64,000 nucleotides of DNA from Squalus acanthias (Eukaryota), in assembly GCA_030390025.1 (NCBI GenBank), contig CM059431.1:141300001-141364000 (forward strand), given 5' to 3'. The notes below the pieces were generated by a model. That model had not been told where the DNA came from. It did no database searches and saw only the letters and a program-made list of their open reading frames with translations. The translations under genes and the position numbers were made by a program. Shown here in pieces: positions 18,001 through 64,000 of the stretch. Within the stretch, counting starts at the first letter, position 1; every line of letters starts with the position of its first letter.

Positions 18001-18180
18001 CTCACAGACTGAACCGCCCCCTCTCTCAGACTGAACCATCCTCTTTCTCAGACAGAACCCTCCCTCTCTCTGGATGAACCGTCCCTCTCTCAGACTGAAC
18101 CGTCCCCTCTCTCAGACTGAACTGCCCGCACTCTGAGACTGAACCGCCCCTCTCTCAGACTGAACCGCCCCCTCTCGCAG
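1..18180. repeat. Satellite array of a 22-bp unit (CTCAGACTGAACCGTCCCCTCT; 21-bp variants) with higher-order repeat structure; runs off the left edge
   Basis: Unit read directly (starts at 541 and 563 give period 22). Rare variant CACCTAGC recurs at 281, 1938, 4954, 6102, 6788, 8457, 9300, 12541, 13884. The array ends abruptly against a CR1 fragment. Confidence 0.98.
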
Positions 18181-18502
18181 AATTAAACTATTTCAACTGG
18201 TGGGGTGTCGAGAACAAAGTTGCATAATCTTCAAATCAGAGCGAGGCCGTTCAGTGGTGATGTCTGAAAGCATTTCTTCACACAAAGGGTAGTGGATGTC
18301 TGGAACTCTCTCCTTCAAAAAGCTGTTGCGTCTAATCGAAAATTTAAAGTCTGAGTTTGGTAGATTTTTCTACATCAAACGTATTAAGGGTTATGGAACT
18401 AAGGCGGGTAAATGGAGTTCCGACATAGATCAGCCATTATCTAATTGAATTGCTAAACAGGATCAAAGGGCTGAGTAGCCCTATACTCCTTCCTATGTTC
18501 CC
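18181..18502 (+). mobile_element. CR1-type LINE 3' fragment
   Basis: Degenerate ORF2 C-terminal region (TTCTTCACACAAAGGGTAGTGGATGTCTGGAACTCTCT) plus 3' UTR ending CCTATGTTCC; same subfamily as 58390-58775. Confidence 0.85.
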
Positions 18503-28879: not shown

Positions 28880-29365
28880 CTCTTAGGATCATAGGACAGG
28901 AAGAGGACATTCAGACCCTCGATACTGTTACTTAGAAACAGGAAGAGGCAATTCTGCACCTCGAGCCTGTTACATAGGCAAAGGGGAAGGCCATTCTGCA
29001 CCTCGAGCCTGTTACATAGGCAGAGAAATAGGCTGTGCAGACCCTCTGTCCTGTTACCTAGGAACCGAAGTATAAATTTCTTCCCACACCCCCCGCCGGC
29101 CCACCAGAGCCTGCTAAATAGCAACAGGAGGAGGCCATTCACCCCCTCGAGCCGTTACATTGGAACAGGAGGAGGCCATTCATCCCCTCACGTCTGTTAC
29201 ATAGGAAACGGAGGAGGCCATTTAACCAAACGGGACATTTAATTAGGAACATCATGATGCCATTCAGATCCTCGAACATTTTACAAAGGACGAGGAGGAA
29301 GCCGTTCAACCCCTCGATCCTATTACTTCGTCACAGGACGATGCCAGTCCGCCCCCTCGAACCTA
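28880..29365. repeat. 42-bp minisatellite, copy in unit A
   Basis: Unit about CATAGGAACAGGAGGAGGCCATTCAGCCCCTCGAGCCTGTTA, diverged. Confidence 0.85.
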
Positions 29366-29870
29366 CTGCACCATTGAATTAGAAAATGGCTGATCTATAC
29401 TTCAATTCTATTATTCTGCATTTACTCTGAATCCCTCAAATACATATCCATCAAACATCTAGCGATCCCAATATTCAACTGTTCTCTATTGATATCCTTG
29501 ATACTCTTCATCACAGTGGCATTACTGTGTATCCAGAAACTCAGCTCGTAATCTTATACTCACTCTTAGTATTTCCACTTTAGGCTGCAATTCCCTGTCA
29601 AAGTTGGCAGTCACTTTGGAAACTATCATGAAAGGGAAGATTGATCATTTATTTCCGATCATGAGCCACACGGTAGACATCAAACAGGATGCAAGTGAAC
29701 TCAAATCTTGAATTGGATAAGGACATCTTGGCCCAATGAAGATGGTGGGATTCGATTTGTCTCCGTGATTGAGTTCGCCAGTGGTCAGAGAAAGACAAAA
29801 GAACGTATCCTCATTTATATCATGATTGGCGATTTCAGGGCGCCCCAAAGCGCTTTACAGCTAATCCAGT

Positions 29871-31253
29871 GTGGTCAATATTATGGTGGTAAGATCAATA
29901 ATGGAATCCCTACTAAAGGAGGAAATGGAAGAACATCCAGAAACCAAAAACATACTAATGAATAGTCAGCATGGATTTCAAAAGGGAAAGTCTTGCTTGA
30001 CCAACCTCATTGAATTGTTTGAAGAGGTAACCGAGAGCGTAGACCATGGTACTGCAGCAGATGTAATTTATCTAGATTTTCAAAAGGCCTTCGATAAGAT
30101 AGCCCGTAATAGACTGATGAACAAGGTCGGAGAATGCGGAGTCAGGGGACGAGTAGCGGAATTGATAGTTAGCTGGCTTCAAGACAGAAAGCAGAGAGCA
30201 GGGGTAAAGGGTAGCTATTCACACTGGCAGAAGATGGGTAGTGGTGTTCCACAAGGATCAGTGCTGGGACCACTGCTGTTCACAATTTATATTAGCGACT
30301 TAGACTTTGGAATCAACAACACAATTTCTGAATTTGCAGATTGCATCAAATTGGGGGGTATAGTCAATACTGAGGAGGACTGCAACAAATTACAGGAGGT
30401 CATTAATAAACTTGCAGAATGGGCATATAATTTACAAATGAATTTAAACACAGATAATGTGAGGTATTGAATTTTGGTAGGAAGAATAGGGGTTCACTTA
30501 TACTTGGATGGTGCGAGTCAAGGTCTGGTAGAGGAACAAAGAGATCTCGGAGTACAAATTAACAAATCACTGAAAGTTGCGACACAGGGTAGCAAGGCCA
30601 TACAAATAAAAAAAAAGCACTAGGGTTAAAAGGTGTAGAATTGAAAAGTAGGCAAGTTATGCTAAACCTGTACCGAACCTTAGTTAGACCACACTTAGAG
30701 TGCGTACAGTTATGGTCGCCATATTATGCAAAGGATATAGAGGCACTGGATAGGGTGCAGAAAAGATGTACATGGATGATACCAAAAATGCGAGGGTATA
30801 CATTTCAGGAAAGCATGAACAGGCTGGGTCTCATTTCTCTTGAAAAAAATAAAGCTGAGGGGCGACCTAATAGATGTCTTTAAAATTATGGAAGGCTTTG
30901 AAAGAGTGGATATAGATAGAATGTTTCCATTTGTCGGGTAGAGCATAACTAAAGGGCATCAATATAAGATAGTCACAAAGAAATCCAGTAGGGAATTCAG
31001 AAGAAACTTCTCTACCCAAGGAGTGATGAGAATCTGGAACTCGCTAACACAGGGAGTGGTTGAAGCGAATAGTATAGATGCATTTAAGAGGAGGCTAGGG
31101 AAGCATATGAGGGAGAAGGGAATAGAGGGTTATGCTGATAGATTTAGATCAGTAAAGACAGGAGGAGGCACGAGTGGAGCATAAATTCCAGTTTGGACTG
31201 GTTGGATCGAATGGACTGTTTCTGTGCCGTATATCCTATGTAATCCTATGTAA
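29871..31253 (+). mobile_element. 5'-truncated CR1 LINE inserted inside a minus-strand SINE
   Basis: RT motifs SQHGFQKGKSCLTNL, YLDFQKAFDKI, GVPQGSVLGPLLF, FAD; TAATCCTATG tail; SINE halves at about 29800-29865 and 31255-31600. Confidence 0.9.
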
Positions 31254-31254
31254 T

Positions 31255-32040
31255 ATTGTAATATGGAAACACGGCAGCCAGTTTGCGCACAGCCAAGCTC
31301 CCACAATTAGCAATAAACCGTCAATCTGTTTTTTTACTGAGGCTGGTTGAGGGATAAATACATGGCCGAACACCGGGGCGAACTCCCCTGCTCTTCTTCC
31401 AATAGTGCCATGGATCATTTAGGTCCACCTAAGAGAAAGACAAGGCCTCGTTTTAACGTCTTATCCGAATGACGGATTCGCTGACAGAACAACGCTCCCT
31501 CAGCACTGTCAACGGAAGTGTTGACCCAGAATATGTGCTCTACTCTGTGCAGTGGGACTTGAACCCTCGACCTTCTGACATAGAGGTCAGAGTGAGGTGA
31601 ACCATGTCAAGCATAGGGGCACATCTGAATCAGAAGGCTTTGGGTTCAAGCCCCTCACCAGAGTCCTTTGCACAAAATCTAGGCCAACACTCCCAATGCA
31701 GTATTGAGGGGGTGCAGCGCTATCTGTGGTGCTGTCTTTCAGAAGAGACGTTAAAATGAGGGCCGCGCCTGCCCTCTCATGTGGACGAGAACGAGCCTAT
31801 GGCAAGATTTTCGATGCACAGCAGGCGAGTTCCCCCGGTGTTCGAGCCAATATTGGTCCTTTACCATCATTACTGTAAAACAGATTACCCAATCATTGGC
31901 GCATTGCTGTAGTTGGAGCTTGCTGTGTGCAAATTTAGCTGCCGTGTTTCCTACATGACAACAGTGACTGCAATTCAAAAATGCTTAATGTTCTGTAACG
32001 CGCTTTGGGACGATCTGAGGTTGTGAAAGTCGCTTTATAG
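31255..32040. mobile_element. Head-to-head pair of Deu-domain SINEs (minus about 31255-31605; plus about 31617-32040)
   Basis: Mirror-image SINE heads GTGGGACTTGAACCC…CTTCTGAC and TCAGAAGG…GGGTTCAAGCCCC separated by a few tens of bp. Confidence 0.85.
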
Positions 32041-33055
32041 AATCGTAGAATAGTACTGCATAGATGGAGGCCATTCGGCCTAGCGCGTCTGCGCTTGCTC
32101 TTTCAAAGAGCAATCCAGTTAGAACCACTCCCCCACCCTTTCCCCATTTCCCAGCATTTTCTCTTTTTCAAGTATTTATCGAATTCCTTTTTGTAGGTTA
32201 CTATTGAATCTGTATCCATTACCCTATCAGACATTGCATTCCCAATCCTAACCACTCGCTGTGTAAACATGTTTTCCCTCATGTGGCCTCTGGTTCTTTT
32301 GCCAATCACCGTAAATCTGAGCCCTCTCGTTATCGACCATTCAGTCATTGGAAACAATTTCTCCTTATTCACTGTATATAAATCCTTGATGATTTTAAAC
32401 ATCTCCATCAATTCTCCTCTTAGCCTTCTCTGCTTCAAGGAGAACAACCCCAGCTTCTCTGGACATATACCGATAACTGTAATCCCTCATTCCTGGAACC
32501 ATTCTAGTAAAGCTCTGCTGTACCCTGTCCGAAGCCTTCACGGCCTTCCTAAAGTGTGGTGTCCAGAATTGGAACCATTACTCCAGCTGGGGTGGAAATT
32601 GTGTTTTATACAAGTTTAGCATAACTTCCTGGCTTTGGTATTCAATGCCTCTATTTATAAAGCCCAGGATGGATCCCATATCGTTTATTATCTGCTTTGC
32701 TAACTTGTCCAGCCAATGTCAAACATTTATTAAAACAACACGCTCTCTGTTCTTTCACCCCCTTAAAATTGTACCATTTAGTAGGCATGGTCCCTGCACA
32801 TTCGTCGTACCAAAATGTTTCACCTCACACTTCTCTGTGTTGAATTTCATTTCAGATGTGTCCATCATTCCACCGGCCTGTGACTTTTTGAAGTCTATTG
32901 CTATCTTCCTCACTGTTTACTGCACTTCTAAGTTACGTGTCAGCAGCAAATTTCGAAATGGTGCCCCGTACCCACAAACTCAAGTCATTAATGTATATCA
33001 CAAACAGCAGTGGTCCGAGTACTGAGCCCGGGGGAACGTCACTATTTACCTGCAT
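32041..33055 (-). mobile_element. CR1 LINE 3' fragment (unit A)
   Basis: FSLKQRRLRGELMEMFK…MFTQRVVRI; degenerate VPQGSVLGP at the 5' end. Confidence 0.88.
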
Positions 33056-33904
33056 CTTTCTTTTCTTTTTATTTCAACATTTAATTGTTAGTCCACAATA
33101 TCACCAAGAGTCTCCCACTGAACTAATACCCTAATTGTCACGTCTCAGTTTCAGTTCCATCTGAACAGTTCACCAAGATGATTTTTTCTGCAAAGCAAAG
33201 CAGAATCTGCACGTACACATGTGGTTTCACAACAGTTCCGCTTTGACATCTTTCATAGCTTTCGTCAAATTGTCATAACTAGTTAGATTATAGCCCAAAT
33301 TCAGTCTTTGGTCTCATGCATATTATCAGTATTTCCATCTGATGGGGCAATTCTCTTCGCAACCGGAAGATATTGATCAACAAGATTCTAATGAACATAT
33401 AGATGGAATGCGGTTTGGAAGTGCATTGAGCACCGGGTGGCCCCTCATCAGGCAACCCTGTGATTGAGCAGATACAAGCCCACCATTCTCCCTCAAGAAG
33501 GGTGGGAGGAGGCTGATGGTGAGCTTGAACACCGCGCGCACCAGTTATGGAAAATTGTCTGTTACTGTGCTGCACATTCAATGTTACCCTGTTTCTATTT
33601 CATATTGCTGATGATAGTATATTAATTGTCGAATGTGTTCCCAAGTTAACTGTCAAGTTTTGCAAAGGAGCAGAGAAATGTGCCATTTCGATTGGAGGTA
33701 CCCCAGCTGATGAATATAAGATCAGTTCACAATTGCAGAGGAGCAAAGCTCTTTATGGTAAATGGTGAGCGGACATCTGAGTGGATTTTATTTCCACTAT
33801 CTACCTCATCGTTAAGCTGCTCACCACCCAGGGCCTGTTAAATAAGAAAGGACAACTGTATCTCTCCTTGATGCAGGTGGACACAGCATACTCATTAAAA
33901 CTAT

Positions 33905-35060
33905 TAGGAACACAGGCAAAGGAGGAGGCTATTCTTCAGCTCGAGTCTGTTACATAGGAACAGGAGGAGGCGATTCTGCAGCTCGATCCTGTTACATAGG
34001 CACAGGAGGAGGCTATTCCGCAGCTCGAGCCTGTTACATAGGAACAGGAGGAGGCGATTCTGGAGCTCGATCCTGTGACATAGGCACAGGAGGAGGCGAT
34101 TCTGCAGCTCGAGTCTGTTACATAGGCACAGGAGGGGGCTATTCTGCCGCTTGACCCGTGACATAGGCACAGGAGGGGTCTAATCTGCAACTGGATTCTG
34201 TTAATTAGGCACAGGAGGGGGCGATTCTGCAGCTCGATCCTGTTACATAGGCACAGGAGGAGGCTAGTCTGCAGCTCGATTCTGTTACAGAGGCACAGGA
34301 GGAGGCCATTCTGCAGTTCGAATCTGTTACATAGGAACAGGAGGAGGCTATTCTGCAGCTCGAGTCTTTTACATAGGCACAGGAGGAGGCTATTCTGCTG
34401 CTTGATCCCGTTACATAGGCACAGAAGGAGGCTATTATGCAGCTCGAGTCTGTTGCATAGACACAGGAGGAGGCTATTCTGCCGCACGATCCCGTTACAT
34501 AGGCACAGGAGGAGGCGATTCTGCAGCTCGAGTCTGTTGCCTAGACACAGGAGGAGCCTATTCTGCAGCTCGATCCTGTTGCATAGACACAGGAGGAGGC
34601 GACTCTGCACATCGAGCCTGTTACATAGACACAGGAGGTGACTATTTTTCAGTTCGTTCCTGTTACATAGGCACAGGAGGTGGCGATTCTGCACCTCGAG
34701 CCTTTCACATAGGCAGAGAAATAGGCTGTGCAGACCCTCAATCCTGGTACCTAGGAACCGGAGAATAAATTTGTTCCCCCACTCCCCGCCGGCCCGCCGG
34801 AGCCTGCGAAATAGCAACAGGAGGAAGCCATTCACCCCCTCGAGTCTCTACATTGGAACAGGAGAAGGCCATTCACCACCTCACGTCTGTTACATAGGAA
34901 ACGGAGCAGGCCATTTAACCACACGGGACATTTAAGTAGGAACATCATGATGCCATTCAGTTCCACGAGCCTTTTACATAGGACCAGGAGGAAGCCGTTC
35001 AACCCCTCGATCATATTACGTCATCAAAGGAAGATGCCAGTCCGCCCCCTCGAACCTACT
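33905..35060. repeat. 42-bp minisatellite, expanded copy in unit B
   Basis: Unit CATAGGCACAGGAGGAGGCTATTCTGCAGCTCGAGTCTGTTA; gives 14-aa periodic ORFs. Confidence 0.95.
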
Positions 35061-35564
35061 GCACCATTGAATTAGAAAATGGCTGATCTATACTTCAATT
35101 CTATTATTCCGCATTTACTCTAAATCCCTCAAAGACTTATCCATCAAAAATATATCGATCCCAAGACTCAACTGTTTTCTATTGATATCCTTGATACTGT
35201 TCATCACAGTGGCATTACTGTGTATCCAGAAACTCAGCTCATAATCTTATACGCACTCTCAGTATTTCCACTTTAGGCTGCAATTCCCTGTCACAGTTGG
35301 CAGTCACTTTGGGAACTATTATGAAAGGGAAGACTGATCATTTATTTCCGATCATGAACCACACGGAAGATATAAAACACGATGCAAGTGAACTCAAATC
35401 TTGAATTGGACAAGGCCATCTTGGCCCAATGAAGATGGTGGGATACGATTTGTCTCCGTGATTGAGTTCGCCAGTGGTCAGAGAAAGACATAAAGTAAGA
35501 ACTCTCGTTTATATCATGATTGGCGATTTCAGGACGCCCCAAAGCGCTTCACAACTAATCCAGT

Positions 35565-36895
35565 GTGGTCAATATTATGGTGCTAAGATCAATAATGGAA
35601 TCCCTACTAAAGGAGAAAATGGAAGAACATCTAGAAACCAAAAACATACTAATGAATTGTCAGCATGGATTTCAAAAGAGAAAGTCTTGCTTGACCAACC
35701 TCATTGAATTTTTTGAAGAGGTAACCGAGAGCGTAGACCATGGTACTGCAGTAGATGTAATTTATCTAGATTTTCAAAAGGCCTTCGATAAGATACCCCG
35801 TAATAGACTGATGAACAAGATCAGATAATGCGGAATCAGGGGACAAGTAGCGGAATTGATAGTGAGCTGGCTTCAAGACAGAATGCAGAGAGCAGGTGTG
35901 AAAGGTCGCTATTCACAGTGCAGAAGGTGGGTAGTGGTGTTCTACAAGAATCAGTGCTGGGACCACTGATGTTCGCAGTTTATATTAACGACTTAGACTT
36001 TGGAATCAACAACACAATTTCTGAATTTGCAGATTACACCAAATTGGGGGGCATAGTCAATTCTGAGGAGGACTGCAACAAATTACACGAGGACATTACT
36101 AAACTTACAGAATGAAGTTCAACACAGATAATGTGAGGTATTGCATTTTGGTAGGAAGAATACGGAGGTCACTTATTGGGATGGTGCGAGTCAAGGTGAG
36201 GTAGAGGAACAAAGGGATCTCGGAGTACAAATGAACAAATCACTAAAAGTTGCGACACAGGCTAGCAAGGCCATACAAATAAAAAAAATGCACTAGGGTT
36301 TAAAAGTATAGAATTGAAAAGTAGGCAAGTTATGCTAAACCTGTACCGAACCTTAGTTAGACCACACTTAGAGTGCGTACAGTTATGGTCGCCATATTAT
36401 AAAAAGGATATAGAGGCACTGGATAGGGTGGAGAAAAGATGTACAAGGATGATACCAGAAATGCGAGGGTATACATGTCAGGAAAGGATGAACAGGCTGG
36501 GTCTCTTTTCTTTTGAAAAAAATAAAGCTGAGGGGCGACCGATTAAATGTCTTTAAAATTATGGAAGGTTTTGTAAGAGTGGATATAGATAGAATGTTTC
36601 CATTTGTCGGGTAGAGCATAACTAAAGGGCATCAATATAAGATAGTCACCAATAAATCCAGTAGGGAATTCAGAAGAAACTTCTTTACCCAAAGACTGGT
36701 GAGAATCTGGAATTCGCTAACACAGGGAGTGGTTGAAGCGAATAGTATAGATGCATTTAAGGGGAGGTTAGACAAGCATATGAAGGAGAAGGGAATAGAG
36801 GGTTATGATGATAGATTCAGATGAGTAAAGACAGGAGGAGGCACGAGTGGAGCATTAATGCCAGTTTGGATTGGTTGGGCCGAATGGACTGTTTC
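35565..36895 (+). mobile_element. CR1 LINE, duplicate of 29871-31253; its tail resumes at about 38391-38425
   Basis: Highly similar to the unit A copy, with the same 5' truncation point. Confidence 0.9.
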
Positions 36896-38390
36896 ATAGA
36901 AACATAGAAAATAGGTACAGGAGTAGACCATTCGGTCCTTCGAGCCTGCACCGCCATTCAATGCGTTCATGGCTGAACATGCTACCTCAGTACCCCATTC
37001 CTGCTTTCTCGCCATACCCCTTGATCCCCTTAGTTGTGAGTGTTATATCTAACTCCCTTTTGAATATATTTAGCGAACTGGCCTCAACAACCTTCTGTGG
37101 AAGAGAATTCCATAGATTCACCACTCTCTGGGTGAAGAAGTTCCTCCTCAGCTCAGTCCTAAATGGCTTCCCCTTAATCCTTAGACTGTGACCCCTGGTT
37201 CTAGTTTTCCCTACCATTGGGAACATTCTGCCCGCATCTAATTTGTCTAAACCAGTCAGGATTTTAAATGTCTCTATAAGATCCCCCCTCATTCTTCTGA
37301 ACTCCAGAGGATACAAGTTCAGTTGACCCAATCTTTCTTGATATGTCAGTCCGGCCATCCCAGGAATCAATCTAGTGAACCTTCGCTGCACTCCCTCAAT
37401 AGCAAGAATGTCCTTCCTTAAGTTAGGAGACCAAAACTGCGCACAATACTCCAGGTGTGGCCTCACCAAGGCCCTGTACAACTGTAGCATCACCTCCCTA
37501 CTCCTGTACTCAAATCCCCTTGCTATGAAGGCCATCATTCCGTTTGCTTTCTTGACTGCCTGCTGCACTTGCATTCCCACCTTCAGTGACTGATGTACCA
37601 TGACGCCTAGGTCTCGTTGCACGTCCCCTTTCCCTAATCTGCCACCATTCAGGTAATAGTCCGCCTCTCTATTTTTACCACCAAAGTGGATAACCTCACA
37701 TTTATCCACATTGTACTTCATCTGCCATACATTTGCCCATTCACCCAACCTGTCCAAGTCACTCTGTAGCCTCCTAGCATCCTCCTCATTGTTCACACTG
37801 CCTCCCAATTTAGTGTCATCCGCAAATTTGGAGATATTACATTTAATCCCTTCGTCCAAATCATTAATATATAATGTAAACAGCTGGGGTCCCAGCACCG
37901 AACCCTGCGGTACCCCGCTGGTCACTGCCTGCCATTCTGAAAAGTACCCATTTACTCCTACTCTTTGTTTCCTGTGTGCCAACCAGTTCTCAATCCACGT
38001 CAACACATTACCCCCAATCCCATGTGCTTTAACTTTGCTCACCAATCTCTTGTGTGGGACCTTGTCGAAGGCCTTCTGAAAGTCCAAATACACCACATCT
38101 ACTGGTTCCCCCCTGTCCACCCTATTGGAAACATCCTCAAAAAATTCCAGAAGATTTGTCAAGCATGATTTCCCTTTCACAAATCCATGCTGACTTGGAC
38201 CTATCATGTCGCCACTTTCCAAATGGTCTGTTATGACATCTTTAATAATTGCTTCCATCATTTTACCCACGACCGATGTCAGGCTGACCGGTCTATAATT
38301 CCCTGCTTTCTCCCTCCCTCCTTTTTTAAAAAGAGGGGTTACATTGGCCACCCTCCACTCCATCGGAACTGATCCAGAGTCTAAGGAATG
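36896..38390 (-). mobile_element. Young 5'-truncated CR1 LINE with an uninterrupted reverse transcriptase reading frame
   Basis: About 465 stop-free codons: NYRPVSLTS, QHGFVKGKSCLTNL, YLDFQKAFDKVPH, GVPQGSVLGPQLF, KFADDTKL; CATAGAAA tail; absent from unit A. Confidence 0.96.
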
Positions 38391-38424
38391 TCTGAGCCGT
38401 ATATCCCATGTAATCCTATTTAAT

Positions 38425-39205
38425 ATTGTAATGTGGGAAACACAGCAGCCAGTTTGCGCACAGCAAGCTCCCACAATTAGCAATAAACCGTCAATCTGTT
38501 TTTTTAGTGATGCTGGTTAAGGGATAAATACATGCCCGAACACCGGGGCGAACTCCCCTGCTCTTCTTCCAATAGTGCCATGGATCATTTAGGTCCACCT
38601 AAGAGAAAGACAGGGCCTCGTTTTAACGTCTTATCCGAAAGACGGAATCGCTGACAGAACAACACTCCCTCAGCACTGTCAACGGAAGTGTTGACCCAGA
38701 ATATGTGCTCAACTCTGTGCAGTGGGTCTTGAACCCACGACCTTCTGACTTAGAGGTCAGAGTGAGGTGAACGATGTCAAGCATAGGGACACCTCTGAAT
38801 CAGAAGGCTTTGGGTTCAAGCCCCTCACCAGAGGCTTTTGCACAACATCGAGGCCAAGACTCCCAGTGCAGTATTGAGGGAGTGCAGCGCTATCTGTGGT
38901 GCTGTCTTTCGAAGAGACGTTAAAATGAGGGCCGCGTCTGCCCTCTCAGATGGACAAGAACGAGCCCATGGCACGATTTTCCAAGCACAGCAGGCGAGTT
39001 CCCCCGGTGTTTTAGCCAATATTGGTCCTCAGCCATCATTACTGTAAAACAGATTACCCAATCATTGGCGCATTCCTGTAGTTGGAGTGCGCTGCGTGCA
39101 AATTTAGCTGCCGTGTTACATTACAACAGTGACTGCAATTCAAAAATGCTTAATTTTCTGTGAAGCGCTTTGGAACGATCTGAGGTTGTGAAAGTCGCTA
39201 TATAG
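38425..39205. mobile_element. Head-to-head Deu-SINE pair (unit B duplicate of 31255-32040)
   Basis: Highly similar to the unit A pair, including the spacer. Confidence 0.85.
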
Positions 39206-40213
39206 AATCGTAGAATAGTACTGCATAGAAGGAGGCCATTCGGCCTATCGCGTCTGCGCTTGCTCTTTCAAAGAGCAAGCCAGTCAGTCCCACTCCCCCA
39301 CTCTTTCCCCATTACCCTGTATTTTGTCTTTTTCAAGTATTTTACCAATTCCCTTTTGAAGGCTACTATTGAATTTGTATCCATCACCATATCAGATTTT
39401 GCATTCCCAATCCTAACCACTCGCTGTGTGAAAACGTTTTCCCTCATGTGACCTCTGGTTCTTTTGCCAATCACCGTAAATCTGTGCCCTCTCGTATCGA
39501 CCATTTAGTCATTGGAAACAGATTCGCTTTATTCACTCTATACAAACCCTTCGTGATTTTAAACATCTCCATCAAATCTCCTCTTAGTCTTCTCTGCTTC
39601 AAGGAGAACAACCCCAGCTTCTCTCGTCTATCCCGATAACTGTAATCCCTCATCCCTTGAACCATTCTAGTCAATCTCTTCTGTACCCTGTCCGAAGCCT
39701 TCACGGCCTTCCTAAAGTGTGGTGCCGAGAACTGGAAACATTACTCCAGCTGGGTGGAACTAGTGTTTATACAAGTTTAGCATAACTTCCTGGCTTTTGC
39801 ATTAAATGCCTCTCTTTATAAAGCCCAGGATCCCATATCCTTTATTAAATGCTTTGCTACCTTGTCCAGCCAATGTCAAACATTTATAAAAAAAAACACA
39901 CTTTGTTCTTTAACCCCTTTAACATTTTACCATTTAGTAGGCATGGGCCCTGCTCATTCTTAGTACCAAAATGTAACACCTCACTTCTCTGCATTGAATT
40001 TCATTTGTGATGTGACTGTTCACTCCACCGGCCTGTCTATGACTTTTTGAAGGCTATTTCTATCTACCTCACTGTTTACTGCTCTTCTAAGTTTCGTGTC
40101 ATTTGCAAATTTCGAAATGGTGCCCCGTACCCACAAGTGCATGTCATTAATGTATATCACAAACAGCAGTTGTCCGAGTACTGAGCCCTGAGGAACGTCA
40201 CTAGGTACCTCCA
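39206..40213 (-). mobile_element. CR1 LINE 3' fragment (unit B duplicate of 32041-33055)
   Basis: VPQGSVLGQLLFVIYIND…KFANDTKL; LGLFSLKQRRLRGD. Confidence 0.88.
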
Positions 40214-41144
40214 TCTTTCTTTTCTTTTTATTTCCACATTTAACTGTTAGTCCACAATATCAGCAAGAGTCTCCCACTGAAGTAATAGCCTAATTGTCAC
40301 GTCTCAGTTTCAGTTCCATCTAAACAGATCACCAAGATGATTTTTTTGCAAAGCAAAGCAGAATCTGCACCTACACATGTGGTTTCACAACAGTTCCGCT
40401 TTGACATCTTTCATAGCTTTCGTCAAATTGTCATAACTAGTTACATTATGGCCCAAATTCAGTCTTTAGTCTCATGCACATTATCAGTATTTCCATCTGA
40501 TGGGGCAATTCTCCTCACAACCGGGAGATATTGATCAACGAGATTCTAATAAACACATTGATGGAATGCGGTTTGGAAGTGCATTGACCAAAATCAGGCC
40601 CCTCATCATGGAATCCTGTGTTTGAGCAGATACAACCCCAGCGTCCTCCCTTTTGGCCTTTTCCAATAAAACTGTTCACTTCATTCATATCCTATTTTGT
40701 CTGTTTAGATGGTTATGCTGATAGGGTTAGATCAAGAGGGGTGGGAGGGGGCTGCTGTGGAGCTTGAACTCCGCGTGCACCAGTTATGGAAATGGTCTGT
40801 TACTGTGCTGCACATTCAATGTTACTCTGTGTCTCTTCCATATTGCTGATTATAGTATTTAAATTGTCAAATGTGTTCCCAAGTTAACTGTCAAGTTTTG
40901 CAAAGGAGTAGAGAATTATGGCGTTTCGATTGGAGGTACCCCAGCTGATGAATATAAGATCAGTTCACAATTGCAGAGGAGCAAAGCTCTTTATAGTAAA
41001 TGGTGACGGGACATCTGAGTGGCTTTTATTTCCAATAACTACCTGATCCGTTAAGCAGCTCACCACCCAGTGCCTGTTAAATAAAGAAAGAACGACTGTA
41101 TTTCTCCTTGATGCAGGTGGACACAGCATACTCATTAAAACTGT

Positions 41145-42465
41145 TAGGAACATAGGCAAAGGAGGAGGCCATTCTGCAGCTACAACCTCTTACATAGGAA
41201 CAGGAGTAGGCCATTCGGCAGCTCGAGCCTGTTACACAGGAACAGGAGGAGGCGATTCTGCAGCTCGAGCCTATTACATAGGACAGGAGGAGGTTATTCT
41301 GCAGCTACAACCTCTTACATAGGACAGGAGGAGGCCATTCTGCAGCTACAACCTCTTACATAGGAACAGGAGGAGGCCATTCTGCAGCTCGATCCTGTTA
41401 CATAGGAACAGGAGGAGGCTATTCTGCAGCTCGATCCTGTTACATAGACACAAGAGGAGGCTATTCTGCAGCTCGAGTCTGTTACATAGGCACAGGAGGA
41501 GGCTATTCTGCAGCTAGAGTCTGTTACATAGACACAGGAGGAGGCTATTCTGCAGCTCGATCCTGTTACATAGGAACAGGAGGAGGCTATTCTGCAGCTC
41601 GTGTCTGTTACATAGGACAGGAGGAGGCTATTCTGCAACTCGATCATGTTACATAGGACAGGAGGAGGCTATTCTGCAGCTCGAGTCTGTTACACAGGAA
41701 CAGGAGGAGGCTATTCTGCAGCTCGAGCCTGTTACATAGGCACAGGAGGAGGCCATTCTGCAGCTCGAGTCTGTTACACAGGAACAGGAGGAGGCTATTC
41801 TGCAGCTCGAGTCTGTTACACAGGAACAGGAGAAGGCTATTCTGCAGCTCGAGCCTGTTACATAGGGACAGGAGGAGGACATTCTGCAGCTCGAGTCTGT
41901 TACATAGACACAGGAGGAGGGGCTTCTGCAGCTCGAGCCTGTCACATAGGCACAGGAGGAGGGGATTCTGCAGCTCGAGTCTGTTACATAGACACAGGAG
42001 GAGGGGATTCTGCAGCTCGAGCCTGTCACATAGGCACAGGAGGAGGGGTTTCTGCAGCTCGAGTCTGTTACATAGGAACAGGAGAAGGCCATTCTGCAGC
42101 TCGAGTCTGTTACACAGACACAGGAAAGGAATAGGTTTAGCAGGCCCTCGATAATGTTAAATAGGTACAGGAGGAGTCTGTTCATACTTTCGAGCCTGTT
42201 ACATAGGAATAGCATGATTCCATTAAATCATTCGATCCTGTTAAATAGGAACCAGACAAGGAGTTTCTTCTCCCCAGAGCCTGTTACATAGCAATATGAG
42301 GAGGCCTTTCATCCCCTCGAGGCTGTTTCATAGGAATAGGAAAATTCCATTCAGTCCCTCGAGCCTTTTACGTCGTAACAGGAGTAGGCCAATCAACCCC
42401 TCGAGCCTGTTGGTTAGGAACCAATGGAGACCATTCAGAGCCTCGCTCCTCTTACATAGGAAGAG
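41145..42465. repeat. 42-bp minisatellite, expanded copy in unit C
   Basis: Same 42-bp unit, with some 41-bp units causing frame changes. Confidence 0.95.
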
Positions 42466-42774
42466 TATCATTCGATCACCATACCCACCAAAAATCTATC
42501 GATTTCAACACACAACAGTCCCCCAATCTCATACTCATTCTCAGTATTTCCATTTATGACAGCAATTCCCTGTCAACATTGACGGATACTTTGGGAATTA
42601 TTATGAAAGGGAACACTGATCATTTCATTCCGTGCATTAGTCACATGGAAGAGACCAAACAAGTTGTGAATGAATTTAACTCTTTAATTGGATAAGGCCA
42701 CCTTGGCCCAATCAGATTAGTGGGATTGGGTTTGTCTCCGTGATTTTTTGCACCTGTGGTGTGAAAGATGTAAA

Positions 42775-43535
42775 GAAAGAAGTTCCATTGATATATCGTC
42801 ATTCCCGATCTCAGGGCGTCCCAAAGCGCTTTACTCAATGAAGTGATTTGTTTTTTTTTGGAGATGTTCAATTTTATAATGTAAGAATCGGGCCAGCCAA
42901 TTTGCTCAGAGTAAGCACCCACTATATGATAATAACTCGTTAATCTGTTTTTATTGATGCTGGCCTGCTGACTTACAGGCAAGAGTTCTACAACTGAGCC
43001 ATGGCTGTTTCCTATGGCTTGTATTCCATGGAGTTGTTCACTATAATGCTGTTTATCTGTATTTCCCCATTGAGGAAAGAATGTTATCATCAGATGAAAA
43101 TAGTGAAGATGAACTTGAGATCAAGGGTTGAATTTGGGATCTAACGTGACTAGATATGGTTCCTTAAAGATCACAAAGATTTCAAAATTAGGGAGTGCTG
43201 CACTGTCTGTGGTGCTGTCTTTCAGATGAGAAGTTATACCGAGGTCCCGTCTGCCCTCTCAGGTGGACGTCAAAGATCGCATGGCATTATTTTCTAAGAA
43301 GAGTAGGTCAGTTCTCCCCGGTGTCTTGGCCAATATTGGTCCATCAATCAACATCACTGATAAACAGTTGATCTGATAATTGTCATATTGCTGTAGTAGG
43401 ATGTTGCTGTGCGACACCGGGCTGCCTTGTTGCCTACATTAAAACAGTGACTCCATTTCAAAAGTGCTAAAACGCTTTGGGATTTCCTGAGGTTGTGAAA
43501 GGCGCTCTCTAAATTCGAGTCCTTTTTTTCTTCTT
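42775..43535. mobile_element. Partial Deu-SINE (minus, about 42775-42965) and 5'-truncated Deu-SINE (plus, about 43190-43535)
   Basis: CAGGGCGTCCCAAAGCGCTTTAC tail on the minus strand; core GTCTTTCAGATGAG…CCGAGGTCCCGTCTGCCCTCTCAGGTGGACG on the plus strand. Confidence 0.8.
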
Positions 43536-43913
43536 ATTTCGATATTTAATTTTTAGTATACAGTATCACCGACACTCTTCCACTGTAATGATAGCTTAAT
43601 CTTGTCACTCTCCGTTTCAATTCCATCTAAGCAGTTCATCAAGATGGTTTTGTTTTGCAAAGAAAAGCGAATTCTGCACGTATACATGAGGCTTCACAAT
43701 AGTTCCTCTTTGACATCTTCCATAGCTTTCGGCAAATTGTCATGACTAGTTACATTATTCCCCAAATACAGCCTTTGATCTCATGCACATTGTCAGAATT
43801 GTCATCTCATTGTGCAATTCCCTTTTCAAACGGGACTTATTGATCAATGAGATAATAAGAAACAAATCGATTTAATGCGGTTAGGAAGTGCATTGACCAA
43901 CAGGTGGCAATTC

Positions 43914-45112
43914 TTTATTATTCATTCATGGGATGTGAGCGTCACTGGTAGGTCCAGCATTTATTGCCCATCCCTAATTGCTCTTGAGAAGGTGGTGGTG
44001 AGCCATCTTCTTGATCCGCTGCAGTCCGTGTGGTGAAGGTACTTCCATAGTGCTATTAGAGAGGGGGTTCCAGGATTTTGACCCAGCGACAATGAAGGAA
44101 CGGCGATACATTTTCAAGTCAGAATGGTGTGTGACTTGGAGGAGAACATAAAGGTGTTGCTGTCCCCATGTGCTTGCTGCCCTTGTCATTCTAGGTGGTA
44201 GAGGTTGTGAATTTGGAAGGTGCTATTGAAGAAGCCTTGGCGAGTTGCAGCATTGCATCTTGTAGATGGAACACACTGCAGCCACGGTACGCCGGTGGTG
44301 GAGGGAGTGAATGTTTAAGGTGGTGGATGGGGTGCCAATCAAGCGGGCTGCTTTATCCTGGATGGGATCGAAAATCTTGAGTGCTGTTGGAGCTGCACTC
44401 ATCCAGGCAAGTGGAGAGTATTCCATCACACTCCGGACTTGCGCCTTGTAAATGGTGGCAAGGCTTTGGGGAGTCAGGATGTGAGTCAGCCCCCGCAGAA
44501 TCCCCAAACTTTGACCTGCACTTGTAGCCACTTTATTTATCTGGCAGGTCCAGCTCTGGTTAATGGTAACCCATAGGATGTTGATGGTGGGTGATCTACG
44601 ATGGTAATGCTGCTGAATGTCAAGTGGCGATGGTTAGACTATCTCTTGTTGGAGATGGTCATTGCCTGGCAGTTATGTGGCCCGAATATTACTTGCCACT
44701 TATGATCCCAAGCCTGTATATTATCCAAAAATTGTCTCACAGTAACTCTACCTGAGGAAGGGGCGACAGCTCCGAAAACTTGTAATTTTAAATAAATCTG
44801 TTGGACTATAACCTGGTGTTGTGCGACTTCTCATTTTTGTCCACCCCAGTCCAACGCCGGCATCTCCACATCATGTATATTATCCAGGTCTTGCTGCATG
44901 TTGGCGCGGACTTCTCCATTATCTGAGGAGTTGCGAATGGAACTGAACACGTTGAACATTCCTACTTCTGACCTTATGTTGGAGGGAAATTCATTGATGA
45001 AGCAGCTGTAGATGTTTGGGCCTAGGACACTGCCCTGAGGAACTCCTGCAGTGATGTTCTAGGCTGAAATGATAGGCCTCCAAAAACAACAATCATCTTC
45101 CTTTATGCTAGG
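43914..45112 (-). mobile_element. Non-LTR retrotransposon 3' fragment of a different family from the abundant CR1s (L2/Crack-like; clade tentative)
   Basis: LGILRGLTHILTPQSLATIYKAQVRSVMEYSPLAW…IQDKAARLI; (ATGA)n-type tail; related 3' end at 57725-58030. Confidence 0.75.
44728..44873 (+). mobile_element. 146-bp Penelope-like terminal-repeat insertion carrying a minimal hammerhead ribozyme core
   Basis: Exact 13-bp direct repeat TGTATATTATCCA at 44715-44727 and 44874-44886; core CTGAGGA-A-GGGGC-GACA-GCTCC-GAAA at 44752-44777, followed by AATAAA. Confidence 0.8.
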
Positions 45113-45410
45113 AACTCTTAGGAACATAGGAACAGGAGAAGGCCATTCAGGCCCTCGATCCTGTTACATAGGAACAGGAGGAGGCTATTCAGATCCTCCA
45201 TACTGTTACATAGGGACAGCAGGAGGCTTGTCATACCCTCCATACTGTTACATAGGGACAGGAGGAGCCCATTCAGGCCCTCGATCCTGCTACATAGCGA
45301 CAGCGAGAGGCTATTCAGGCCCTCCATACTGTTACATAGGAACTGGAGAATGACTTTCTGCCCCTCGAGCCTATTACATAGCAAGAGGAGCAGGCCAATT
45401 AGTCCACCAA
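45113..45410. repeat. 42-bp minisatellite, copy in unit D
   Basis: CATAGGAACAGGAGAAGGCCATTCAGGCCCTCGATCCTGTTA-type units. Confidence 0.9.
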
Positions 45411-47323: not shown

Positions 47324-47440
47324 TGAGTCAGGCAGCCGGCGGAGGTTTTAGTTCCATCAGTCAGAGATGTTCTGCACCCAGCTACAATCCTGAGAAGGCG
47401 CCCTGCAATCAACCACATCATCCAAACACCGCAGGTAAAT
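47324..47440 (+). promoter_or_regulatory. Candidate promoter and first non-coding exon
   Basis: AP-1 site TGAGTCA (47324-47330), GC-box-like GGCGGAG, Inr-like TCAGTC (47357), then donor CAG|GTAAAT at 47434/47435. Motif-level evidence only. Confidence 0.35.
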
Positions 47441-47447
47441 TAGAAAG

Positions 47448-48441
47448 CAGCTATTCACAATATATATTAATGATCTAGACAAGGGATCTAGATGTAATAT
47501 ATTCAAGTTTGCAGACGACACAAAGCTGGGTGGGCGTGTGTGCTGTGAGGATTATGCCGATAAAATCCAGGATGATTTGGACAGGTTGGGTGATTGGGCA
47601 GAAGCATGGCAGATGCAATATAACGTGGATAAATGCGAAGTTATCCACTTTGGTTTCAAAAACAGGAAGGCAGATTATAATCTGAATGGCAATAGATTGG
47701 GAGAAGGGGAAGTTCAACGAGACCTGGGTGTCCTTGTGCACCAGTCGCTGAAGGTAATCATGCAGGTGCAGCAGGCGTTTAAGAAGGCAAATGGTATGTT
47801 GGCCTTCGTAGCGAGATGGTTTGAGTACAGGAACAAGGATGTCTTGCTGCAGTTGTACAGGGTCTTGGTGAGACCACATCTTGAGTATCGTGTGCATTTT
47901 CGGTCGCCTTATCTGAGGAAGGAGGTTCTTGCCATGGAAGGAGTTCAGCGAAGATTCACCAGGCTGATACCTGGGATGGCAGGAATGACCTATGAGGAGA
48001 GATTGGGTCGATTGGGCTTATACTCGCTGGAGTTTAGAAAAATGAGAGGGGATCTCATTGAAACTTATAAAATTCTGACAGGACTGGACAGAATAGATGC
48101 AGGAAGGATTTTCCCGATGGTCGAGGAGTCCAGAACCAGGGGTCACAGTCTAAGGATAAGGGGTAAGCCATTTAGGACAGAAATGAGGAGGAATTTCTTC
48201 ACCCAGAGAGTGATGAACCTGTGGAATTCTCTACCACAGAAGGCAGTAGAGGCCAATTCATTAAATATATTCAAGAAGTAGTTGGATATATTTCTTAAGG
48301 CTAAAGGGATCAAGGGATATGGGGAGAAAGCAGGGATAGGGTTCTGAATTTGGATGATCAGTCATGATCGCATTGAATGGCGGAGCAGGCTAGAGAGGCC
48401 GAATGGCCTACTCCTGCTCCTATCTTCTATGTTTCTATGTT
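47448..48441 (+). mobile_element. 5'-truncated CR1 LINE
   Basis: QLFTIYINDLD…KFADDTKL and 247-aa ORF2 C-terminal ORF; TTTCTATG tail. Confidence 0.93.
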
Positions 48442-60850: not shown

Positions 60851-61719
60851 ATAATGAAAACAGAGGAGAGATAAACAGAGTTAATGTTTCCAGTAAATGA
60901 CCTCCCGTCACATAGTAAGCCAAGAATGATAGTCACTAATCCAATTTGGAGTTGGCTCGATGTGTTAGTCACTCTTTGTGTGATAATGAACTCCTGATGA
61001 CATCTGCCAATTGCTTTAGGCCGAGAAACATTGAATCTCTGAATTTACGGTGCCTGTGGAGGGTTTAGAATCGCTGTTACCCACGCCCCTCGTGGTAGTC
61101 ACAGTTATTGCCTTGGAATATGCTCATTCTCAGACCCCAAATCGTGAGGGGAATTCAATAGTCCAACTGGATAAAGTTAGGGCCTCACTGCAATGTAATT
61201 GATGTTTGTGGGACCTTGCTGTGCACACATTAGCTCCCATGATTCCCTACGTTACAACAGTGACTGAACGTAAAGAAGTACGTCATTGGGTGTAACGCGC
61301 GTTGGGAGGTCCTGATGTCTTGAAAGGTGCGATATAATTACAAGTTCTTTCTTTCCTTCCAGCGAGTAATATTGGATTTGCACTCGGTTGTCTTTCTCCC
61401 GACGGACGGATCAGGAGGAAATTGGCACCCTTAATATGTCCGTAAGTGAGAGAGTTGTGAAACAATAATTAAATTATAACCTCAATAATGAAAATGGAAA
61501 GAAATGAAGAGAGATCTCAATAATTCTGCCCGATATAATTTCATAACATCGAATTGTGATATCTACAAACTAAACTCATTGTCGGTGTAATTTCATTCCA
61601 ATAATGATGCTGAATTAATCCACAAGATAACATTTGTTGATATTTAACTATCATCAGAAGGAGAGATTATGTTTTATTAGATTCTCAGCAGGTGCAATAT
61701 TGTGGCCGAGTGATTGAAA

Positions 61720-61804
61720 ATGGAACCAGAACAATCCACATCCACAGGTGGGAAAGGTGGAAAAGGTACAATTCGAAAAGTGATCAACTATATAACTGCC
61801 AATG
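61720..61804 (+). CDS. First coding exon of a putative NLR (NACHT-LRR) family gene: MEPEQSTSTGGKGGKGTIRKVINYITAN
   Basis: Strong Kozak context GAAAATGG, in-frame upstream TGA at 61711, upstream acceptor TTTTATTAG (61680), phase-1 donor G|GTAAGG matching the next exon. Confidence 0.65.
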
Positions 61805-61894
61805 GTAAGGGAGGAAAAGTAAAACAGGCAGGCATCAGAGGATAGATAGTTATGGCTACATGAATGAGTTAGATGTTAACTTGGCTAACAGGAT

Positions 61895-62530
61895 GGAACA
61901 GAGCAAGAGAGGAGAAGGCCGCCCAGCCCCTATAACCTGTTACATAGGACCAGGAGGAGGCCATTCAGCTCTTTGAGCCCCTTACATAGGAATAGGAGTG
62001 CGCCATTCAGCCCCTGGAATCCGTTACATAGGAATAGAAAGAGGTCAGTGAGCCACTTGACCCTGTAACCCAGGAACAGGAGGACGCCATTCTGCCCCTG
62101 GAACATGTTACATAGGAACCGAAGGAGGCCAGTTATGCACTCGATCCTGTTACATGGTAAGAGGAAGAAGCCAGTTAGTCTCTCGAGCCTATTACATAGG
62201 AACAGGAGCAGGCCATTTACCTCATCGAGCCTATTGCACAGGAACAGGAATAGACCATTTAGCTCTTCGAGCCTGTTACATAGATAAAGAAGTAGACCAT
62301 TCAGCCCTCGAGCCTGTTACATAGGAACAGGAGAATAACATACAACTCTGAGAGCCTATTACGTAGGAGCAGGAGTAGACCATTCAGCCTCTCAACTCTG
62401 TTGCATAGGAGCAAGAGTAGACCATTCAGCCTCACACCACTGTTGCATAGGAGCAGGAGTAGACCATTCAGCCGCTGAAACCTGTTACATAGGAACAGGA
62501 GAAGGCCATTCTGCCCCTCGAACTTGTTCC
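61895..62530. repeat. Diverged 42-bp minisatellite at a CR1 3' end, inside the first coding intron
   Basis: CATAGGAACAGGAG…CCATTCAGCC…GAGCCTGTTA units running into CCACCATTCAGTGAAGTCATGGCTGATCTG (reverse complement of a CR1 3' UTR). Confidence 0.88.
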
Positions 62531-62733
62531 ACCATTCAGTGAAGTCATGGCTGATCTGTATCATAATTCTATTTAGATATTGTTCAAGTGAGATAAAAAA
62601 AGTTGTTTATGGCCAATTTAAAAGTGGTGCCAATCGGTTGACAGTAATAGTTATTTGTACTAATATTCCTATAAATGGATCAGTCATATTTTGTAAATTG
62701 CTATTTTCATTCACATTCGCTTATTTTTTATAG

Positions 62734-62903
62734 CTGAGGATAAAGATGGAATCAGTCAAACACTGGACAGTTACAGTCACACGAAGTTAAACATGATCAC
62801 CCAGTTTTACCGTCAGAGATTAGAGGAGGCGATTTTGGAACTGGTGGAGAATATCGCCCTGGCACTTATGGCCGCAGATTTGTTGAGTGGCGAGGAATAT
62901 GGG
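62734..62903 (+). CDS. Second coding exon, putative helical N-terminal domain of an elasmobranch NLR: (A)EDKDGISQTLDSYSHTKLNMITQFYRQRLEEAILELVENIALALMAADLLSGEEYG; gene continues beyond the window
   Basis: Acceptor TTATTTTTTATAG|, 170 nt open in phase 1 to 0, donor |GTAGGT; motif L..IT.FYR.RLEEAI…V..I…L…SG.E recalls N-termini of shark/ray proteins annotated NLRC3/NLRP3-like. Confidence 0.72.
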
Positions 62904-64000
62904 GTAGGTTGGATTACACGAGTCCTATGTTAAAACTAATTTTTTGTTAAGGTTCAATCGAACAGAAAGCTCATTTTGAGTCAAGGGTAAAGTATCAAAT
63001 AGTGCTTATGAAAGAGATTAAAATGGAAAGGAAATTCGAGCCTGGTCGAATTTGGACGCTCCCTGCAAGGAGGGCAATTTTCACTTTGGGAAATGCTGTA
63101 AATTGGGTGTTCGCCAATTGGTCACCCATTAAACGCCATGCCCGATTTATTTAATTTAGGCGCACAACTGCTCCATTCCCCAAATACCTCCAACATGCCC
63201 AGCATTTACCAACCAAGACAGCTGGTTGGCAGTCAACTGCTGGATCCTTCCCCATGTGTCTAACTGGCGCCAGCAAATGCTCGGATTAACTCCAGAGCGA
63301 TTGGCCCACTTGTCTTTCCTCAGCTTCTCTTGAAATCTTAGCAGAAGCTTCATTGGAGGTTGCATTCAGCTTCGATGGAATAATGTAGGGTGCTGAAAAT
63401 CAGACATGTGTAATCGAGCTGTGGAGCAAATACCCGCAATAAAAGATCGAGGAAACTCTGCTGCAAGCGTGTAACGCTATACCTGAATTTCCTCACTGTT
63501 TTTGCTTGTCTGTCAATCCATGCCCTCAAACTTATCTCGGCACATTATAATAGGTCGGCCTCCAGGCTTAAGAGTCATAAACGCGCGAATTTCCAGCAAT
63601 TGTTCTGGTCAACTGAATTGTATAATTAAGCCCAGAATTTTAGCGGCAGCATTAATTAATGGCACGGATTTTGCAGTCAGCGGCTAAGGAATGTTGCTTG
63701 TCATTCACCTCGCTGACAGCTGACGACGACGATTTGACGGGCTTCAGAGTGGAGACTTGCTCTAATCCAGAGTCTGATCCAGCATGGTGCCCTCTACGGG
63801 GGATCTGTGGCATCTGTGAAACAGCGAGTCTGTTCAATCGATCAAATTGGAGAATCCGCACTGAGGCACGCAGAGTGCAAACCAGGATGTATAAAGCAGG
63901 AAAAGTAAATTAGATTTAAATGATTGCCAAAAGCAAAATAAAGACTGGGAAATACAGATGGGATTAAGGGAGAGAGATGAAAGTAACAGATGGGCAAAAT

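Follow-up and report, generated by a model that had tools for sequence, protein, structure and literature searches.

Among cartilaginous fish, the whale shark has been described as carrying an expansion of NLRP-related NLRs that evolved by birth–death or concerted evolution and whose members are proposed inflammasome activators (PMC8455134). The available whale-shark passages say nothing of the N-terminal domain, and we infer the membership of the gene analyzed here in that family, which it resembles as a cartilaginous-fish NACHT–LRR expansion. Screening by title and abstract opening, across a literature mostly without subscription journals, returned no paper on the N-terminal domain of this shark NLR family, and a term search of one preprint (bioRxiv 10.64898/2026.04.26.720791) matched no shark terms. 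A second described system that bears on this locus is the endonuclease-independent insertion of human L1 elements, in which target DNA is deleted, the normal 3′ end is absent and short homology is found at the joints (PMC1920257).

We analyzed 64,000 nt of Squalus acanthias CM059431.1 (141,300,001 to 141,364,000, hereafter the window) together with the adjoining DNA of the same contig, into which the window numbering is continued beyond 64,000 (adding 141,300,000 gives the contig position). The gene that starts toward the end of the window is a known kind of shark NLR that is broken as assembled. As the best explanation, with about an even chance of being correct, we propose that the window copy is a recently disabled allele of a conserved shark CARD–NACHT–LRR gene in a birth-and-death cluster.

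Results

Gene start in the window

Two exons on the plus strand had been put forward in the preliminary description as the hidden start of an NLR gene. Both are real: the canonical splice sites, matching phases, ATG context, upstream TGA and 85 stop-free codons were all reproduced by computation, and the exon edges recur in paralogues. Exon 1 (61720-61804, 85 nt) holds 28 codons plus 1 nt, ends in phase 1 and is followed by the donor GTAAGG, while exon 2 (62734-62903, 170 nt) lies between the acceptor TTTTATAG and the donor GTAGGT and leads from phase 1 to phase 0. The start ATG has A at −3 and G at +4, and the in-frame TGA lies three codons upstream. Between the two exons, intron 1 (61805-62733, plus strand, GT..AG, phase 1) contains ~14 copies of a 42-bp minisatellite; the first part of intron 2 (62904-64000, plus strand) runs to the window end, beyond which lies the remainder of the gene. 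In six of six close paralogues, at 92-96% DNA identity, exons 1 and 2 have the same edges, with one paralogue lacking the exon-1 donor. Both exons match an NLR of the catshark Scyliorhinus canicula (P0002), exon 1 at 20/25 residues (80%, residues 9-33) and exon 2 at 37/56 (66%, residues 36-91), and these matches are therefore colinear across the predicted junction. Together with the edges shared by the paralogues, this agreement exceeds what chance would give.

The annotated start of P0002 lies six codons earlier than the Squalus start (window 61702-61722). At the catshark start position all seven close Squalus copies have GTG, followed by an in-frame TGA and by ATG at codon 7, and this upstream TGA may mark a lineage-specific start shift. 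Further upstream, a tandem CAGCAG acceptor ending at 61692 suggests a putative non-coding exon. Exon 1 encodes a basic Gly/Lys-rich N-terminal extension before the CARD, which passes into an amphipathic-looking stretch and is 80% conserved with the catshark; the basic peptide could possibly act in membrane targeting, although this is a guess. Exon 2 encodes helices 1 and 2 and the first turn of helix 3 of the predicted CARD, ending at orthologue residue 48.

The window also holds a 22-bp satellite (1-18181, ~840 copies, strong C skew) and dispersed arrays of the 42-bp minisatellite (28896-45397 and 61936-62511), which are the source of several long window ORFs.

Downstream NACHT and LRR exons and their relatives

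A large NACHT exon and LRR exons had been predicted to lie past 64,000, and all were found on the plus strand, 6.7-14.4 kb beyond the window. The NACHT–WH–HD2 exon (70660-72406) is 1,747 nt long and starts in phase 1, and three LRR exons follow at 76538-76624, 77478-77645 and 78310-78397 plus stop. All four are open and have canonical sites, which in itself argues against a disabled copy. Pfam identified NACHT (E = 2.2e-34), HD2 (6.7e-18) and NOD2_WH (8e-11) in the NACHT exon, and Walker A and Walker B motifs were found there. The three LRR exons are 68-80% identical to the LRR region of the Mustelus asterias protein P0001, on which Pfam LRR_6 was detected, and terminate at the same residues as the orthologues. 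In a profile search against solved structures, the NACHT–LRR part scored best with NLRP-type sequences; dominated by NACHT–LRR columns, that search was uninformative on the CARD. Judged by its predicted domains (NACHT with Walker A and B, winged helix, HD2 and C-terminal LRRs), the product is an NLR, and its earlier assignment to an expanded family of shark NACHT–LRR receptors holds.

Orthologues were identified in M. asterias ('NLRP12-like' P0001, 823 aa) and S. canicula ('NLRP3-like' P0002, 859 aa). The NACHT exon is 79% identical to both and grouped with them with support of 100/100 in a 10-row tree, built without whale-shark or human NLRs, in which two NLRs of this genome's main expanded type were set apart (56-57% identity). 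A paralogue at ~157 Mb of CM059431.1, in which a frame other than the NACHT exon is the longest, was for that reason not included in the tree. The gene had been called a divergent member of its family; having orthologues in two further shark species, it is no divergent orphan. P0001 and P0002 resemble the window copy in their C-terminus and in being colinear over exons 1 and 2; unlike it, they keep the whole CARD and the linker.

In the 3.7-Gb genome, NACHT matches number at least 95 (481 candidates, of which 95 were scored), and many lie at the same end of the chromosome; for the second CARD exon, with 150 of 435 candidates scored, the number is at least 150. A second NLR, of the main expanded type, lies on the minus strand 88-135 kb past the window (CM059431.1 141,452,000-141,499,400); its CARD is divided between exons in the same way, and its NACHT exon is open. 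At 153.7-159.2 Mb, second-CARD-exon matches recur at ~7-kb spacing (for example, seven within 158,854,853-158,895,776), and the homologues P0005, P0006 and P0011 contain 3-4 matching stretches; these may point to shark genes with long tandem-CARD arrays.

The N-terminal domain is predicted to be a CARD

With the Pfam CARD family (PF00619, cut-off 23.9 bits), the orthologues scored below the cut-off (P0001, 15.3 bits; P0002, 17.0 bits), and one of the 14 homologues scanned passed it (P0007, 30.3 bits). Single exons searched each alone gave no Pfam match, half-domains being too short, and no PYRIN row was returned for P0001 at E ≤ 1. Newer Pfam releases place these shark proteins in family PF27087. 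The fold was modeled on the Mustelus orthologue, not on the window copy, from 51 sequences; 78 homologues had been drawn from cluster representatives, and 50 of these (single matches, mostly short) were aligned to the N-terminal 134 residues of the Mustelus protein. The resulting model (pLDDT 90) has six helices with helix 1 kinked, and a single-sequence fold (pLDDT 54) was not used for structure search.

Compared against 48,161 solved chains, the model matched the NLRC4 CARD best (Z 13.2, rmsd 1.9, 87 aligned), with the CARDs of ARC (Z 13.1, rmsd 1.4, 80 aligned), zebrafish ASC (Z 12.5, rmsd 2.2, 90 aligned), NOD1 and caspase-1 at Z 12.4-13.1 and the best death domain at only Z 7.9. Judged by title, 34 of the 36 chains with Z ≥ 8 were CARDs or CARD-bearing proteins, although helical bundles may also attain Z values of such size. 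Foldseek ranked CARDs first as well (top hit ARC CARD, probability 1.00 but E = 0.093), and the three leading clusters of an Atlas search were CARDs (0.89-0.90); with exon 2 alone, the Atlas search gave sub-0.9 leads only. Neither fold list contained a pyrin domain other than full-length ASC aligned on its CARD, an absence that is not proof; a family outside these lists could still match. In the model, the shark domain shares the six-helix fold with kinked helix 1 of CARD-bearing NLRs (NLRC4 and NOD1) and of the ARC, ASC and caspase-1 CARDs, whereas sequence identity to these is merely ~9-24%. By prediction, the N-terminal domain is a diverged CARD of ordinary fold, which supports the identity of the gene as a CARD-NLR. 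The death fold suspected at first agrees with this model, but the idea of an atypical domain is at odds with the predominance of CARDs among the best-matching chains. The names given to P0001 and P0002 imply a PYD, whereas the orthologue model matches CARDs.

A LINE fragment in place of exon 3 and most of exon 4 in the assembly

Between exon 2 and the NACHT exon, six of six close paralogues have two further exons: exon 3 of 172 nt (168 nt in one), which encodes the remaining half of the CARD, and exon 4 of 66 nt. In the window copy, exon 3 and most of exon 4 are absent, and a 2,004-bp LINE fragment on the minus strand (65015-67018) stands in their place, followed by a plus-strand remnant of exon 4 (67019-67039) that consists of its last 21 nt and its donor. 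The alignment of the window copy to the paralogues ends at ~65,025 and restarts at 67,017; relative to the four paralogues that can be aligned up to the left joint, 449-455 bp are missing. A genome search with exon 3 recovered the six paralogues at 87-100% and no match at this locus, and the search with exon 2 recovered seven copies. With the 81 catshark residues that lie between exon 2 and NACHT, paralogue B gave E = 8e-27 and this locus E = 1.7 at best. The gene had been considered apparently intact, but in the assembly the bridge from phase 0 to phase 1 is missing, and the absence of exons that all six paralogues have argues for a disabled copy.

Along its entire length the insert shares 98.1% identity with the middle of another genomic copy, whose 1,002-aa ORF2 is open; it is an internal ORF2 fragment from which both LINE ends are absent and which has no tail. 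Each joint has 2-3 exact shared bases, and the left joint matches imperfectly at 10/11. A further fragment from this LINE family lies in the window (36895-38391, Pfam RVT_1); it matches the intact copy at 99.1% identity and is free of indels. The family, which we take to be of the CR1/L2-type clade, is young (~1% from the intact copy). Other RT remnants lie in the window at 29865-30467 and 47439-48278. Classical target-primed LINE insertion was rejected, as the fragment lacks a 3′ end. The insert has neither a 3′ tail nor a target-site duplication, a target deletion accompanies it and microhomology is seen at both ends, so that its layout matches that described for endonuclease-independent L1 insertions (PMC1920257); by this analogy, the layout would favor a disabled copy. 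It differs from the L1 cases in that the shark LINE is of another clade, that DNA-templated repair is indistinguishable from RNA capture and that the insert is known from the assembly. To judge from its structure, the lesion would most likely have arisen in the repair of a double-strand break, in which a segment from the interior of a LINE was captured and ~450 bp were lost.

Alternatively, the LINE replacement could be an artefact introduced in assembly or polishing, or could represent just one allele of two, the real gene being an intact CARD–NACHT–LRR gene like the orthologues; we regard this as possible but doubtful. In its favor, the 2,004-bp insert lacks single bases at 17 places, 15 of them in homopolymer runs, and contains no insertion, compared with 0 deletions in the 1,497 bp of the same-family window LINE (P = 9e-5), one single-base deletion in total in five other local pieces and six in ~10.4 kb of flanks. 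This excess, restricted to the insert, looks like poor read support and counts against a disabled copy; it suggests that the insert is backed by few reads, as could be the case for a heterozygous allele, for a stretch with poor polishing or for an artefact. Neither LINE junction was found at a second place among the best 40 candidates of each search, which points the same way. Against an artefact, a single raw noisy read would be expected to carry differences well in excess of 2%. The clean two-sided swap with short homology at its joints is, moreover, a described biological outcome (PMC1920257).

Damage to paralogues and private changes in the window copy

Each of the six close paralogues is damaged by a stop, a frameshift or a deletion. 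In two copies that are more distant (94%), the 21-25 kb retrieved upstream of the NACHT match hold none of exons 1-4. Of the copies found, at least nine, none is complete (best candidates were scored, and more may exist). Damage in all six paralogues is in line with a disabled window copy; that the orthologues are intact in two other sharks, yet 0/9 copies here are, would fit an artefact. Some of the 1-bp frameshifts in the paralogues may be sequencing errors.

Private changes are distributed unevenly along the window copy. Its exon 2 has four private amino acid changes and one silent change in 56 codons, three of the four at residues where the two orthologues have D/D, D/E and S/S. Four changes against a neutral expectation of 1.9 are not significant (P = 0.12), which counts against a disabled copy, while the divergence of exon 2 from the paralogues (29 per kb, against 12-30 in intron 2) is close to the intron rate and unlike that of a constrained exon, which speaks against an intact gene hidden by an artefact. 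The LRR exons have no private amino acid changes and two silent ones, where ~3.8 amino acid changes would be expected under neutrality (P = 0.02, a rough estimate), and this argues against a disabled copy in that the 3′ part would have been under selection until recently or would still be. The NACHT exon has three private amino acid changes, none beyond codon 63, and the contrast between exon 2 (4/56) and the NACHT exon (3/581) is significant (P = 0.0015). The LRR and exon-2 pattern fits either a copy that was the working one and was lost recently or a CARD-less form that is still used.

Selection alone was rejected as the cause of the low NACHT change rate, which continues into intron 5. Over a tract at 70861-74050, only two of 1,546 exon sites and none of 745 intron-5 sites differ privately, compared with 107/6,980 intron-wide (~15 per kb; P = 1e-5 against 0/745), and the tract is close to the majority sequence of the six paralogues. 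Because the low change includes an intron, gene conversion or a pooled-read consensus is indicated, and the NACHT exon is not fully trustworthy. Pooled reads of several copies would be expected to yield such a tract, which is consistent with an artefact, although gene conversion could produce it as well.

Predicted products of the window copy

Joining exons 1, 2 and NACHT in silico shifts the frame, because the phase-0 end of exon 2 does not fit the phase-1 start of the NACHT exon, and brings a stop at codon 102; the assembly holds no continuous frame from a whole effector domain into NACHT. This early stop and the four private changes in exon 2 both argue for a disabled copy. Default splicing from exon 2 to the NACHT exon would thus shift the frame, and the transcript would probably undergo nonsense-mediated decay.

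As the CARD module lies between two phase-1 introns, a CARD-less form is conceivable. If the lesion is real and exon 2 is skipped, exon 1 (phase 1) would join the NACHT exon (phase 1) to encode 724 residues, and the gene would persist as a sensor partner or dominant-negative decoy; we consider this unlikely. The computed frame is open to the normal stop, and private amino acid changes fall in exon 2 but not in the LRR exons or in NACHT after codon 63, as such a form would predict. Both canonical exon-2 splice sites are kept, however, so skipping would be a minor path; homogenisation accounts for much of the low change rate, which reaches intron 5; and a LINE family this young leaves little time for selection on a new form. 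Quite improbable is the fuller scenario in which a LINE-repaired break halved the CARD of the one working copy and a CARD-less NACHT–LRR protein is now made by exon-2 skipping, to act as a decoy or as a sensor that depends on a partner; in that scenario the CARD exon decays, and NACHT and LRRs remain clean.

Use of a cryptic acceptor that lies 19 nt ahead of the remaining exon-4 donor would restore the frame after exon 2 and give a 787-residue protein with half a CARD. One of four in-phase AG sites within 400 nt yields an open micro-exon, and no stop interrupts the joined frame. Against this, an AG preceded by pyrimidines 18 nt upstream would probably be used first, bringing a stop, and two and a half helices, judging by the model, are unlikely to fold. 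We hold this outcome to be very improbable.

Three same-species runs guessed to be RNA, available as contigs, gave no cover on exons 1 and 2 and were uninformative on expression. One 179-nt contig at depth 2, from a run guessed to be RNA, fits the NACHT exon of the window copy best (1 difference; paralogues, 2-7), which would count against a disabled copy, although the contig shows no splicing and may be DNA. All three runs contain short contig pieces at L011:7483-7552 and 7850-7884, several at depth 400-1,300, which continue into other NLR family members, and the main expanded type seems well represented. The intron-1 minisatellite attracts many repeat-derived contigs in the three runs.

Discussion

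In its intact form, the receptor would be expected, from what is known of the family, to sense through its LRR and NACHT parts, to oligomerise in a nucleotide-dependent manner and to recruit an adaptor or caspase, a hypothetical partner, by CARD–CARD contact. Under the reading that we prefer, a recently disabled allele, this gene would have been broken by capture of a LINE segment in the course of birth-and-death turnover in a large NLR cluster, with the window copy one of at least nine, none complete as assembled. The locus clearly illustrates how exons of an NLR cluster can be lost through LINE capture, and it cautions that assemblies of such clusters may not be reliable. Its significance is modest and would be greater if the CARD-less form proves to be expressed. 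For the family, the model points to a CARD, and not a pyrin domain, at the N-terminus of these shark 'NLRP3/12-like' proteins; if these shark NLRs form inflammasomes, direct CARD–CARD recruitment of caspase-1 or ASC would be implied.
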